From: a virus
Lineage: Duplodnaviria > Heunggongvirae > Uroviricota > Caudoviricetes
DNA length: 9,690 nucleotides
Virus record (IMG/VR): IMGVR_UViG_2551306491_000022
Strand: one strand, 5' to 3'
The position numbers and the translations under genes were made by a program. Positions 6,403-9,690 of the stretch are shown here, one piece after another (within the stretch, counting starts at the first letter, position 1; each line of letters opens with the position of its first letter). The notes under the pieces were generated by a model, which worked only from the letters and a program-made list of their open reading frames with translations, did no database searches and was not told the origin of the DNA.

Positions 6403-6485
6403 GGTGTAAGACACAATGTAAAATAACGGTGTCTTACACGTCAACCCTTCAAAATATTTTTTTTTCGTGTATATTGTCTTACACC
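6403..6485 (+). promoter_or_regulatory. Operator array and promoter of RHH module 1: three copies of GTGT-N3-ACAC palindrome
   Basis: GGTGTAAGACAC (6403-6414, inverted orientation), GGTGTCTTACACG (6428-6440), TTGTCTTACACC (6474-6485). Candidate -35 TTCAAA (6448-6453) and -10 TATATT (6470-6475) with 16-nt spacer. The third operator overlaps the -10 and start site. Confidence 0.5.
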
Positions 6486-6505
6486 AAAAACATGAGGGGT
6501 TAAAC

Positions 6506-6685
6506 ATGGCAACGGGGCCAAAGAATGCAAAATCACAATCTGTAACTGCACGTATTGCCCATGAAATTATTGAAGGCATGGAGAACGTGAAAGAAGAAGG
6601 TGAAAGCACGGGGCAGTTTATAAACGCAGCCATGCGCGGCGAAATCAAACGCCGCCAGCGTCGCAAGGCCAAAGAATCAGAATAA
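6506..6685 (+). CDS. Ribbon-helix-helix (CopG/Arc/MetJ-like) DNA-binding protein, 59 aa; putative repressor of module 1
   Basis: ATG at 6506 with GAGGGG 6 nt upstream (track start 6467 is GTG and would include the operator). Sequence KSQSVTARIAHEIIEGMENVKEEGESTGQFINAAMRGEI fits the RHH pattern of beta-strand, helix, G-x-S/T turn, helix, with a basic tail. Confidence 0.55.
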   Translation: MATGPKNAKSQSVTARIAHEIIEGMENVKEEGESTGQFINAAMRGEIKRRQRRKAKESE

Positions 6686-6690
6686 TCACT

Positions 6691-6734
6691 ATCAGCGCCG
6701 TGGTGTGAGGTACTACGGCGCATTGCTTTACAGG
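6691..6734 (+). repeat. Conserved 44-bp element with internal hairpin (copy 1), between the RHH gene and the downstream small gene
   Basis: ATCAGCGCCGTGGTGTGAGGTACTACGGCGCATTGCTTTACAGG is 43/44 identical to 7369-7412. Stem GCGCCGT(6695-6701) / ACGGCGC(6715-6721) with a 13-nt loop; the single difference is in the loop. Confidence 0.6.
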
Positions 6735-6742
6735 GCAGTATC

Positions 6743-6970
6743 ATGACCAACAACACACTATCACCAATACAAGACACGCAGACGCAAGAAGATGAAATCA
6801 TTCGGCAAAGGCAGTTAGAAACCTGTGCTCGCCTTGAAGCCGAACTGGCTAATCCTCTGAATATCCAACTAATACCGATAGAAATGAAACCTGGACTATT
6901 CGCGTTGGAGGCATTTTTAGCAAGCTGCCCACGGCGGCTAAAGTCCCGTAAGAATCGCCCGCCAGGATGA
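6743..6970 (+). CDS. Hypothetical small protein (75 aa), partner gene of RHH module 1
   Basis: ATG at 6743 with AGGG 7 nt upstream. N-terminus MTNNTLSPIQDTQTQ resembles MTNKESTDTPSQKT of the gene at 7421. TGA at 6968-6970. Confidence 0.45.
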   Translation: MTNNTLSPIQDTQTQEDEIIRQRQLETCARLEAELANPLNIQLIPIEMKPGLFALEAFLASCPRRLKSRKNRPPG

Positions 6971-7089
6971 GTACACAAAACCGAACTATGAAACGGATTA
7001 TTCCGTTTCCGGGGCGTTTGTGTGTGTATAAAGAGTAAGCTATGCTCTTTTATAGCCATAATCGTTACCTCAATTAATGGTTTGGTTAG

Positions 7090-7131
7090 ACGCCCCATAT
7101 GTGAGCCACCACTGCGGGGCGTTGTTTTTTG
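7090..7131 (+). terminator. Intrinsic terminator ending RHH module 1
   Basis: CGCCCC(7091-7096)...GGGGCG(7116-7121) stem followed by TTGTTTTTTG (7122-7131). Confidence 0.6.
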
Positions 7132-7147
7132 TATAACGGTAAGTACA

Positions 7148-7191
7148 ATGGTAATTACCATGTAACTATAGTAATTAAGGGTAATTACCAT
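7148..7191 (+). promoter_or_regulatory. Operator pair of RHH module 2: palindrome GGTAATTACC x2
   Basis: ATGGTAATTACCAT (7148-7161) is a perfect 14-bp palindrome. The second copy GGTAATTACC (7180-7189) sits between the Shine-Dalgarno and the ATG of the RHH gene. Centres are 30 bp apart. Candidate -10 TATAGT (7167-7172) lies between the two sites. Confidence 0.5.
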
Positions 7192-7363
7192 GTCAACACC
7201 ATTGGAAAAGCGATCGCCTCCATACCAAATGCGGCTACCAGAAGAATTCAGAGCACAACTTGAAGAGGCAGCGAAAGCAGACGGTGACACTTCTTTAGCC
7301 ACCTGGATCAAGCGAGTACTCCGAAAAGAATTACAGCAACGCGGTATTGAACCCAAAGGATAA
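7190..7363 (+). CDS. Arc-like ribbon-helix-helix DNA-binding protein, 57 aa (below the length cutoff of the ORF track); putative repressor of module 2
   Basis: ATG 7190 to TAA 7361-7363, Shine-Dalgarno AAGGG. Translation MSTPLEKRSPPYQMRLPEEFRAQLEEAAKADGDTSLATWIKRVLRKELQQRGIEPKG has the Arc/Mnt-type RHH pattern. The operator palindrome overlaps its start. Confidence 0.55.
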   Translation: MSTPLEKRSPPYQMRLPEEFRAQLEEAAKADGDTSLATWIKRVLRKELQQRGIEPKG

Positions 7364-7368
7364 AAAAC

Positions 7369-7412
7369 ATCAGCGCCGTGGCGTGAGGTACTACGGCGCA
7401 TTGCTTTACAGG
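7369..7412 (+). repeat. Conserved 44-bp element with internal hairpin (copy 2)
   Basis: ATCAGCGCCGTGGCGTGAGGTACTACGGCGCATTGCTTTACAGG, 43/44 identical to 6691-6734, at the same position relative to the RHH stop and the downstream ATG. Confidence 0.6.
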
Positions 7413-7420
7413 TACACACA

Positions 7421-7624
7421 ATGACCAATAAAGAATCAACCGATACACCATCGCAAAAAACGAACAGAGAGCACGAAAATATGGCGCTCGAGCATGAATC
7501 AGAAAGATTCGCACCATGCGCTTTTGTCCTTGATGAGTTTCTAAAAAAATATTCACGTTCTGAACGGATGAAAATGGCAGCACAATACGGCCCCAACAAG
7601 AAAGATAATTGCCCACCAGCCTGA
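7421..7624 (+). CDS. Hypothetical small protein (67 aa), partner gene of RHH module 2
   Basis: ATG at 7421 with AGGT 7 nt upstream; TGA at 7622-7624. N-terminal similarity to the 6743 gene product. Confidence 0.45.
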   Translation: MTNKESTDTPSQKTNREHENMALEHESERFAPCAFVLDEFLKKYSRSERMKMAAQYGPNKKDNCPPA

Positions 7625-7691
7625 TCGCGGTTATCATGCCCAAGCTTATGATTGTTGACACATACGGCGCAGCGGGTTAATTGTTCAGAAA

Positions 7692-7720
7692 GGTGGCTCC
7701 ATTTCGGGGCCGCTTTTTTT
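7692..7720 (+). terminator. Intrinsic terminator between the convergent plus-strand module 2 and alpA
   Basis: GGTGGCTCC(7692-7700), loop ATTTC, GGGGCCGC(7706-7713), then TTTTTTT(7714-7720). Stem includes G-U pairs. An A-run on the other side could allow weak bidirectional action. Confidence 0.6.
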
Positions 7721-7745
7721 ATGTTCATCATTTGCCCTATATATG

Positions 7746-7952
7746 TTAAGCGGTCGTTCCGCGCGCTTCTTGTTCTCGTTCTTTCATCCATGCGATTACG
7801 TCTTCCTCATACCATCCGCGACGGCGCAAACCGACACGAAAACCCTGCGGGAATTCTCCGGCGTTGATCATGCTTTGCAGCGTGCTGTCTGCCTTAATGT
7901 GGATAAGTTTTTTTACTTCCTGGCGAAAGATGACTTTTTTGATTGCTTCCAT
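7746..7952 (-). CDS. alpA: AlpA-family transcriptional regulator (phage excisionase-like DNA-binding protein)
   Basis: 68-aa ORF, ATG with GAGGT upstream. FRQEVKKLIHIKADSTLQSMINAGEFPQGFRVGLRRRGWYEEDVIAWMKER fits the AlpA pattern (R.EV....G.S.ST.Y.....G.FP.P.K.G.R...W...EV..W). Position next to a P4-type integrase is typical. Confidence 0.8.
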   Translation of the reverse strand: MEAIKKVIFRQEVKKLIHIKADSTLQSMINAGEFPQGFRVGLRRRGWYEEDVIAWMKEREQEARGTTA

Positions 7953-8448: not shown

Positions 8449-9690
8449 CTAAACGGCTCGGATACCCCTTTTACCACTGGCGAGGGTTACGCCCGTCGCC
8501 GCAGCCTCGACAAATTCGCCCCACCAGCGCATAAGCACGATGCGTTTTTCTATGTAGTTGCTCCGGTTGTATGCCCGTCTGACTTCGTTGGTGTCGACGT
8601 GGGCAAGTGCGGCCTCTATTACGTCCGGCTCAAAGCCTTCTTCGTTCGCTGCTGTGCTGAATATGGCGCGTAATCCATGAGACACCAGCACGCCAGCGAA
8701 TCCCATGCGTCGTAATGCTGCGTTAGCGGTCTGGCTGTTCATCGGCTGCTGTGGGTCTTTCAGACTCGGGAAAACATAATCGCGGTGGTGGCTGATTGGT
8801 TTCATAGCCTCCAGCACTGCCATAGCCTGGTCACAAAGCGGGATAACGTGGTCGCGGCGCATCTTCATGCGTCCGGCGGGTATGGTCCAGCGTTGCGCTT
8901 CCATGTCGATTTCTTCCCAGCGTGCCGACGATGCTTCAACGGGACGGGTTACGGTCAGTAACTGCCATTCAATCAGTAATCTGGTCTGCCGTTCTGTTGC
9001 CGATACTGATAAAGCCTGCATAAGCTCCGGCAGCTGTTCGGGGCGGATTGTTGGCATATGTTTTTTTACAGGGGAGGGGAACGCCTTACGCACATTCATA
9101 GCCGGATTGGCATCAATCATCCCACTATTGGCGGCGTAATCCATTACCTCATTTATACGCTGTAAAACTCGCTTGAGCGTTTCCAGGTTGCCACGTTCCT
9201 TGATGGGGGTAAGCACCTCAACGAACCTGCGAGCGGTCAGGGTGTCTATTGGCGTGTTGCCGATGAACGGGAATACATATTTTTCCAGCGATCGCCAGAT
9301 GTCTTTAATCGTATTGGGGGCCAGATTCTGGCTGATTTTCACCTGGTACCATGCTGTTGCCACATTTTCGAACGTGTTCCCTTGTCTTCGGGCCTCTGTC
9401 TCTCTTTTTTGCCTCTCGTGGTCCTGCGGGTCAGTTCCGGCACGAATTAACGCCCTGTACTCGCTACGGCGTTTTCTGGCATCAGCCAGGGAAACATCAT
9501 CAAGCGATCCAAAACTCAGCAATATTCTTTTTTTGTCCGATGGTCGGTAGTAGGAAAATCTCCAGAGTTTTGATCCGGACGGTTTGATCAGGAGAAAAAG
9601 CCCTCCGCCGTCCTGTAGGGTGTATTCCTTTTCTGCTGGTCTGGCTGCTTTGATCTGTACTGTGGTTAATGGGGGTGTTTTTCTCGCCAT
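8449..9690 (-). CDS. int: Tyrosine site-specific integrase, P4 family
   Basis: 413-aa ORF whose ATG is the last three bases of the window. N-terminus MARKTPPLTTVQIKAARPAEKEYTLQDGGGLFLLIKPSGSKLWRFSYY is the conserved P4-type integrase N-terminal signature. C-terminal catalytic region has HGLRAIFST...RAYNRSNY (His/Arg and Tyr motifs). Confidence 0.9.
   Translation of the reverse strand: MARKTPPLTTVQIKAARPAEKEYTLQDGGGLFLLIKPSGSKLWRFSYYRPSDKKRILLSFGSLDDVSLADARKRRSEYRALIRAGTDPQDHERQKRETEARRQGNTFENVATAWYQVKISQNLAPNTIKDIWRSLEKYVFPFIGNTPIDTLTARRFVEVLTPIKERGNLETLKRVLQRINEVMDYAANSGMIDANPAMNVRKAFPSPVKKHMPTIRPEQLPELMQALSVSATERQTRLLIEWQLLTVTRPVEASSARWEEIDMEAQRWTIPAGRMKMRRDHVIPLCDQAMAVLEAMKPISHHRDYVFPSLKDPQQPMNSQTANAALRRMGFAGVLVSHGLRAIFSTAANEEGFEPDVIEAALAHVDTNEVRRAYNRSNYIEKRIVLMRWWGEFVEAAATGVTLASGKRGIRAV

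Follow-up and report, generated by a model that had tools for sequence, protein, structure and literature searches.

Three short related sites lie in the 192-bp gap that separates two divergent genes, an Icd-like gene on the minus strand and a small ribbon-helix-helix (RHH) gene, RHH 1, on the plus strand. Their presence raises the question of which protein recognizes them and which of the two genes that protein controls. The 9,690-bp stretch of DNA that we analyzed (hereafter the window) belongs to a capsid-forming PICI-type island of Escherichia coli and carries the gene set of such elements: an integrase, an AlpA-like gene, a primase, and a capsid and a protease of its own (Table 1). Packed ORFs run from the Icd-like gene down to the primase. 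One E. coli locus, 98% identical to the window over positions 6115-7000, is annotated as encoding an integrase, an HTH regulator, a YlcI/YnfO protein, an Icd-like protein, DUF4222, a primase, a capsid, a protease, a portal and a head-closure protein; its HK97 protease and capsid are encoded by separate genes and not by a fusion as in the window. The occurrence of different head modules beside the same regulatory module indicates that this module is common to islands with different heads. Part of the region 6100-7000 was matched in 1,070 of the 5,426 complete E. coli genomes, and at least 80% of it was covered in only 48 of them.

Table 1. Features of the window referred to in the text, with their positions, strands and sequences.
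Feature	Position	Strand	Sequence	Basis and remarks
ClpP-like prohead protease/major capsid fusion	540-2429	minus		NF045540, 890 bits
Primase-family gene	3962-5371	minus		Annotated in the 98% identical locus
Icd-like gene	6113-6313	minus		NCBIfam NF033153, 64.6 bits (cut-off 25); first gene of the leftward operon
Candidate promoter of the antisense RNA	6272-6277 and 6295-6300	plus	TTGTGT, 17 nt, TATGAT	Consensus-level guess
Candidate cis-antisense RNA, ~79 nt	6307-6385	plus		Antisense to the leader of the Icd-like mRNA, its Shine-Dalgarno and its AUG
Operator O1	6404-6414	minus	GTGTAAGACAC on plus, GTGTCTTACAC on minus	Abuts the predicted P_L -10 and covers the predicted P_L start (~6408)
P_L, predicted divergent promoter	6415-6444	minus	-35 TTGACG (6444-6439), -10 TACATT (6420-6415)	18-nt spacer containing O2
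Operator O2	6429-6439	plus	GTGTCTTACAC	Inside the P_L spacer; last base common to the P_L -35
P_R candidate -35	6448-6453	plus	TTCAAA	16 nt from the -10; weak, poorly conserved
P_R -10, predicted promoter of the RHH gene	6470-6475	plus	TATATT	Consensus scan and conservation
Operator O3	6474-6484		TTGTCTTACAC	Overlaps the last 2 nt of the P_R -10 and the predicted start (~6482)
RHH 1 gene, YlcI/YnfO family, 59 aa	6506-6685	plus		Shine-Dalgarno GAGGGG at 6494-6499
Terminator-like hairpin	6695-6721	plus		Directly 3' of the RHH 1 gene
AlpA-like gene	7746-7952	minus		Weak Pfam match below cut-off; PHROG excisionase/regulator match
Integrase ORF	8449-9690	minus		Matches the annotated tyrosine-type integrase of the 98% identical locus

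The repeated sites and the neighboring RHH protein

Read directly from the sequence, positions 6403-6414 are GGTGTAAGACAC (reverse complement GTGTCTTACACC), positions 6428-6440 are GGTGTCTTACACG and positions 6474-6485 are TTGTCTTACACC. These segments contain two exact copies of the 11-mer GTGTCTTACAC on opposite strands (O1 and O2) and a third copy, TTGTCTTACAC (O3), which differs by a single mismatch, T for G at position 1. When up to one mismatch was allowed, GTGTCTTACAC presented three matches in the entire window, all within 82 bp, relative to 0.09 expected from 200 dinucleotide-preserving shuffles, none of which reached three matches. Allowing two mismatches added just one more match, which is at chance level, and a repeat search of the window returned the same three copies. 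The first-pass annotation had described three operators sharing a core of the form GTGT-N3-ACAC. These counts indicate that the three repeated sites are real, but the shared core is exact only in sites 1 and 2. Likewise, the GTGT-N3-ACAC motif fits the window, but the motif of the family at large is GTG-N5-CAC with an asymmetric center that bears the specificity; the 4-bp arms are a peculiarity of the specificity class found in the window.

The protein encoded beside the sites matches NCBIfam family NF041551 (YlcI/YnfO) over all 42 profile positions (64.8 bits; cut-off 30; E = 5e-18). No Pfam family was matched at E <= 1, the Arc and RHH_1 models included. Against the PDB, RHH 1 yielded chance-level matches only by sequence-profile search and nothing by Foldseek, and a tblastn search of 50,697 phage records returned no match. 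Our search of the literature on the YlcI/YnfO family, which also covered DUF3950, found no functional study. The AlphaFold2 monomer model (39 homologues; pLDDT 87.8) is extended at residues 10-17 and helical at residues 19-28 and 35-58, which corresponds to the layout of the RHH superfamily, i.e., an N-terminal beta-strand followed by two helices within about 45 residues. In the ribbon-helix-helix fold, helix 2 characteristically opens with a G-x-S/T/N turn. The turn that precedes helix 2 in RHH 1 is G32-E33-S34, of which E33 and S34 are invariant in the 39 aligned homologues; a few of these have D or N in place of G32. The top structural neighbors are plasmid RHH autoregulators (CopG, omega and ParG), along with many RHH antitoxins (MazE6, HicB, TacA and RelB). 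It is the predicted fold, and not the sequence, that places RHH 1 in this superfamily. Residues 11-15, which belong to the predicted strand, are the sole hypervariable stretch of an otherwise conserved alignment. We take the residues R16-I17-(A/P)18 of RHH 1 to be aligned with R13-W14-P15 of Arc, and on this alignment residues 12, 14 and 16 would face the DNA.

Promoters and other elements around the sites

A promoter scan of the region yielded 5 promoter-like sites relative to 4.1 in shuffled sequences. The scan returns about as many promoter-like sites as the shuffles, so that our promoter calls rest on conservation and not on score; promoter geometry was compared in 56 non-redundant loci. 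At P_R, the hexamer whose last 2 nt belong to site 3 reads TATACT in 45 of the 56 loci (TATATT in the window), and a TAnnnT hexamer occupies the -10 position in 54. Site 3 systematically begins with T or C, and not with G, in the relatives, since its positions 1 and 2 are also the last two bases of the -10. These two shared nucleotides likewise account for the one base by which O3 departs from the consensus. The overlap of site 3 with a -10, as initially proposed, is thereby borne out, and the comparison across loci also favors the autorepression that had been suggested for this site, which overlaps the RHH gene's own -10 and predicted start.

On the opposite strand, a TTGAC-type hexamer (TTGAC/A/G plus G) abuts site 2 in 51 of the 56 loci and would constitute the -35 of P_L. 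A TAnnnT hexamer is found 17-18 nt from it in 55 loci, the -10 being the one picked as best among four spacings. Site 1 begins -2 to +1 nt beyond this -10 in 35 loci and +10/+11 nt beyond it in 20. The conservation of the P_L hexamers at O1 and O2 indicates that the upstream pair of sites sits on a divergent promoter, and not merely upstream of the RHH promoter. The pair had been thought to allow cooperative binding at the RHH promoter; this view needs to be revised, as the two sites are not just helpers but lie on a conserved P_L, with its -35 abutting site 2 and with site 1 at or after its -10. P_L heads the operon that extends from the Icd-like gene to the primase. At both promoters, a repeated and partly symmetric sequence was thus found over core promoter elements (consensus matches backed by conservation), which is the arrangement of repressor operators.

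This geometry bears on three other readings of the sites. We consider it quite unlikely that all of them serve the RHH promoter, with the upstream pair as cooperative auxiliaries and no functional leftward promoter. O3 does overlap the P_R -10, nearly all loci keep sites 2 and 3 at a distance of 45 bp, and P_L is itself a consensus-level prediction. However, pure autoregulation leaves unexplained the two conserved hexamers of P_L, as well as the position of O1, which tracks the P_L -10 and not P_R at a spacing from O2 that varies among loci (22-25 or about 35 bp; range 22 to 35 bp), and it would leave the leftward operon without any other evident promoter of its own in the window. The P_R -35 is poor and not conserved across the 56 loci, while the distance from O2 to O3 and the -10 is invariant, and this combination would suit a bifunctional RHH protein. 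Bound at O2, which is centered some 48 bp before the predicted start of P_R, the protein would activate P_R and repress P_L, and O3 would shut P_R only at high concentration; the argument is purely geometric, and we regard such a dual role as unlikely. Finally, O1 and O2 could form the arms of an RNA or DNA hairpin (an attenuator or a terminator), as these 11-nt arms are perfectly complementary and 14 nt apart. Site 1 is indeed inverted in the window, as the first-pass annotation had noted, but its orientation has no meaning across relatives: it is inverted relative to site 2 in 26 of the 56 loci and is a direct repeat of it, from which no hairpin is possible, in the other 30. The orientation varies even within one class, and the third copy lies 45 bp off, at the other promoter, all of which makes a hairpin extremely improbable.

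The leader of the Icd-like gene contains a candidate cis-antisense RNA with two hairpins; 18 nt separate O1 from the end of its terminator hairpin and U-run. The plus strand of 6307-6385 folds at -32 kcal/mol (z = -4.4), relative to -19.4 kcal/mol (z = -0.4) for the minus strand. Across 32 relatives, 96.6% of the cells are paired and compensatory changes are seen in 12 of 23 pairs, a result that none of 500 shuffles reached; among the non-Watson-Crick cells, 59 are G.U on the plus strand and 4 on the minus strand. A leader structured in the minus-strand sense was rejected, because RNAalifold gave it a poor energy (-8.65 kcal/mol) and the plus strand is the structured one. No Rfam family matched the region or its surroundings at E <= 1, and C4 (RF01695) and isrK had no match in the window. 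We also observed that the A of the antisense RNA's putative -10 comes from a His/Ser codon, which always ends in T in the loci compared. Another terminator-like hairpin with a T-rich tail is found on the minus strand at 6258-6278, inside the 5' part of the Icd-like ORF, where its T-run coincides with conserved RFLAL codons.

A second RHH module is present in the window (7006-7200, plus 7340-7470), and its palindrome had been called unrelated to the sites described above. The sequences do differ, but the two modules are paralogous versions of a single cassette. It contains a 5' remnant of the Icd-like gene (CAT at 7047-7049) with the same two hairpins and T-run. The motif GGTAATTACC occurs at 7150-7159 and 7181-7190, positions equivalent to O1 and O2, and a strong leftward promoter, TTGACA-17-TACTAT, is found at 7196-7168. 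Module 2 has no P_R/O3 segment, and the ATG of RHH 2 lies at the O2/-35 junction. Both RHH genes are followed by the same terminator-like hairpin (7374-7400 after RHH 2) and by an ORF that begins with MTN.

An ORF of 496 codons (6301-7791, minus strand) runs antisense across both RHH modules, starting 46 nt inside the end of alpA. Neither Pfam nor PHROG yielded a match to the 496-aa product. An equivalent antisense frame without stops is in frame with the ATG of the Icd-like gene in 25 of 37 non-redundant loci, with a median of 207 open codons relative to 4 in the other two frames. This frame keeps a constant phase relative to the RHH reading frame and its N-terminal parts are not conserved. 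It may represent translated read-through from alpA, for which we take the PLL transcripts of P4 to be a parallel.

Operator classes and cassette exchange among relatives

An alignment-based search identified 78 loci in more than 20 Enterobacterales genera. In most of them, a motif-blind repeat search recovered a locus-specific 11-mer present three times, at -32, -77 and -99 to -114 from the ATG of the RHH gene; the positions of O3 (-32) and O2 (-77) are fixed in nearly all relatives. The sites have the GTG-N5-CAC frame in common, often as GGTG...CACC, and their central 5 bp agree among the three sites of one locus and differ between loci. In the class of the window (S/T), the three sites and the adjoining promoter hexamers stand as conserved blocks in diverged spacers. 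The most distant loci (L071-L073 and L077-L079, with strands such as QLKNI and QYKGI) carry three or four repeats at shifted positions (about -57, -80 and -103) and in a different frame, e.g., GTGTGTATTTA, which seems to be an alternative layout of this system.

We compared the operator centers with the beta-strands of the RHH proteins in 53 non-redundant loci, where 21 strand variants correspond to 19 centers. Every center is associated with one residue-14 identity and with one residue-12 identity, the exception being TGGCC (Ala or Ser at residue 12). S12/T14 was found with TCTTA in E. coli, Superficieibacter and three Xenorhabdus species, and the other residue 12/14 pairs include K/E with TCAGC, Q/N with AATCG, and M/T with AAATA or ACATA. 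These pairings suggest a recognition model in which an S12/T14 strand would read GTGTCTTACAC and a K12/E14 strand (KKLEA class) would read GTGTCAGCCAC. Operator distance correlates with strand distance when the rest of the protein is controlled for (partial Mantel r = 0.43; reached by none of 5000 permutations). The correlation with operator class is nevertheless similar for the rest of the protein (r = 0.69) and for the beta-strand (r = 0.67), because the cassette carries the N-terminal part as a whole, and the statistics therefore do not single out residues 12 and 14. The sample contained no same-operator pair with less than 65% identity in the rest of the protein, and no pair with at least 85% identity and different operators. 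The co-variation of the variable strand residues with the operator center lends indirect support to a model in which an RHH dimer would insert its paired strands into the major groove.

Natural swaps of operators and RHH proteins were identified in four pairs of loci (L046/L051, L017/L051, L004/L019 and L006/L041), which are 90-97% identical on both sides of the exchange, the Icd-like gene included. The identical flanks reach the integrase in the Pectobacterium/Samsonia pairs. Between L046 and L051, identity amounts to 96.6% on the upstream side (-568 to -162) and to 90.8% on the downstream side (+131 to +576), with no alignable sequence between the two, and it is about 90% farther out, across the integrase. 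The divergent gap extends from -120 to +112 in L017/L051 and from -274 to +136 in L004/L019. Overall, the three pairs delimited by BLAST diverge from about -120 to -274 through +112 to +136, a segment that comprises the operators and the first 37-45 RHH codons. The swapped cassette is about 230-410 bp long and comprises nothing but the operators and the part of the RHH gene that encodes the N-terminus, in elements that are otherwise about 90% identical. In the alignment of L006 with L041, the divergent block starts just past the T-run of the upstream hairpin, ends inside helix 2, and keeps only the promoter hexamers and the GTG/CAC flanks. These swaps indicate that the determinant of operator specificity is encoded in the interval from about -120 to +131, in which nothing is annotated as coding except the N-terminal part of the RHH protein. 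Cassette exchange is, to us, the strongest argument from sequence comparison for the pairing of operators with RHH proteins. Together with co-variation, it suggests that operator specificity is tied to the cognate RHH protein.

The swaps also bear on the possibility that the sites are bound by another protein of the element, as primase/replication iterons, as arm-type sites of the integrase, or as sites for the Icd-like or AlpA-like protein. Repeated intergenic 11-mers are typical of iterons and integrase arm sites in mobile elements, and the Icd-like protein matches PHROG families labelled "transcriptional repressor". In the swapped pairs, however, all three sites change along with the N-terminus of the RHH protein while the Icd-like gene, the downstream genes and the integrase remain 90-97% identical; in addition, loci whose primases are equally similar to that of the window (59%) carry different operators, and the sites overlap promoter hexamers. 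Another element-encoded binder is very unlikely in light of these observations. A different proposal would keep RHH 1 as the binder and make it a type II antitoxin paired with the 75-aa ORF that follows at 6743-6970, the sites being antitoxin operators. The many antitoxins among the top structural neighbors agree with it, but a terminator-like hairpin separates RHH 1 from this ORF, and the Xenorhabdus relatives have a different terminator hairpin right after the RHH gene and no partner gene. Moreover, the 75-aa ORF has no family match and is unannotated in the 98% identical E. coli locus, and RHH 1 presents only a short basic tail and no toxin-binding domain. We consider a toxin-antitoxin pair highly improbable.

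Up to four cassettes of different classes were found in a single genome, which led us to reject a host factor as the binder. Genomes with multiple cassettes are those of Xenorhabdus mauleonii (L004/L019/L049/L054), X. innexi (L022/L043/L056/L065) and 11 others. Co-resident pairs of the same class amount to 1 of 28 relative to 2.9 expected, a difference that is not significant, and that single pair looks like an assembly duplicate. The co-residence of different classes is suggestive of heteroimmunity.

A candidate repressor switch and comparable systems

The reading that we favor, and that we consider likely, is that RHH 1 acts through three operators on the divergent promoters P_L and P_R to repress both the Icd-like-to-primase operon and its own gene, in a manner resembling the OR region of lambda. 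One RHH dimer would bind each 11-bp site. Residues 12, 14 and 16 of both subunits, in the two-stranded beta-ribbon, would read the 5 bp that vary at the center, and the invariant GTG/CAC flanks would be read by conserved parts of the protein. O1, over the start, and O2, in the spacer and touching the -35, would block P_L and with it the Icd-like gene, several small ORFs and the primase operon of a capsid-forming PICI-like satellite. O3, over the -10 and start of P_R, would block transcription of the RHH gene and result in autorepression; it may be an intrinsically weaker site than O1 and O2. The net effect would be that the replication-side operon is kept off while the RHH protein limits its own synthesis. 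We infer binding, stoichiometry, transcription starts, the direction of regulation and the lifting of repression from these comparisons of sequences. If the model holds, it assigns a function to the YlcI/YnfO family and provides satellites with a repressor-operator switch in front of their replication genes. About 20 natural matched pairs of beta-strand and operator would then constitute a test set for DNA reading by RHH proteins and for satellite heteroimmunity.

A much broader hypothesis can be formulated, which we advance tentatively and hold to be somewhat unlikely. The RHH protein and its operators may represent the missing immunity-type master repressor of many Enterobacterales satellites, capsid-forming PICIs included, with at least about 19 mutually exclusive specificities swapped as cassettes of about 230-410 bp. 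This repressor would work together with a cis-antisense RNA directed against the Icd-like gene and would be overridden by translated read-through from alpA, as in the case of P4 PLL. Were this true, control of Gram-negative PICIs would be a repressor/anti-repression switch and not AlpA activation alone. Published work on Gram-negative PICIs describes control by an activator, the master regulator AlpA, and not by a repressor, and the region beside alpA in capsid-forming PICIs has been described as variable and of unknown function. In the literature on Gram-negative PICIs, EcCIEDL933 included, we found no description of a repressor-operator switch.

One parallel in layout is with lambda, where OR1, OR2 and OR3 lie between PR and PRM and where CI bound at OR2 activates PRM. 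As in lambda OR, three related sites are found between back-to-back divergent promoters, two on the "active-cycle" promoter and one on that of the repressor gene, and the latter site is off consensus. Unlike in lambda OR, the proposed binder is a 59-aa RHH protein and not a helix-turn-helix protein, the sites are 11-bp GTG-N5-CAC sequences with an asymmetric center, and no Cro-like regulator is evident. In the immI region of P22, the RHH repressors Arc and Mnt act at the divergent promoters Pant and Pmnt, next to the sar antisense RNA, and Arc binds its 21-bp operator as a tetramer. The region studied here resembles P22 immI in its proposed RHH repressor at operators in a divergent promoter region and in its small antisense RNA (a candidate in the window). 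It differs in that the Pfam Arc model misses RHH 1, no antirepressor gene is present and the target would be the Icd-like/primase operon.

In the immI region of P1/P7 (c4-icd-ant) and in P4 immunity (CI RNA, PLE/PLL), the repressor is a trans-acting processed RNA, and we know of no protein repressor with operators described for these systems. As in both of them, an Icd-like gene heads the operon that would be regulated and a small RNA may take part in leader control, and as in P4 the same operon reaches a primase; in contrast to them, Rfam models C4 and isrK are unmatched here and a protein repressor with operators is proposed. Among Gram-positive islands, the SaPI repressor Stl is a large helix-turn-helix protein released by helper-phage proteins. 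As with SaPI Stl/Str, the repressor gene of a satellite would be divergent from the replication/packaging operon under its control; unlike Stl, the binder proposed here is a small RHH protein.

The plasmid regulators CopG (pMV158), omega (pSM19035) and ParG are, like the protein proposed here, small RHH dimers that bind repeated short sites over promoter elements and regulate their own synthesis. Omega uses arrays of heptads and CopG a 13-bp pseudo-palindrome, and the repeat architecture of our loci differs from theirs, as does RHH 1 itself, which has no detectable sequence relationship with these proteins. YlcI (DLP12) and YnfO (Qin) of E. coli K-12 belong to the same NCBIfam family, NF041551, as RHH 1. 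An RHH autoregulator with repeated operators is a textbook principle, of which we found no description for the YlcI/YnfO family.
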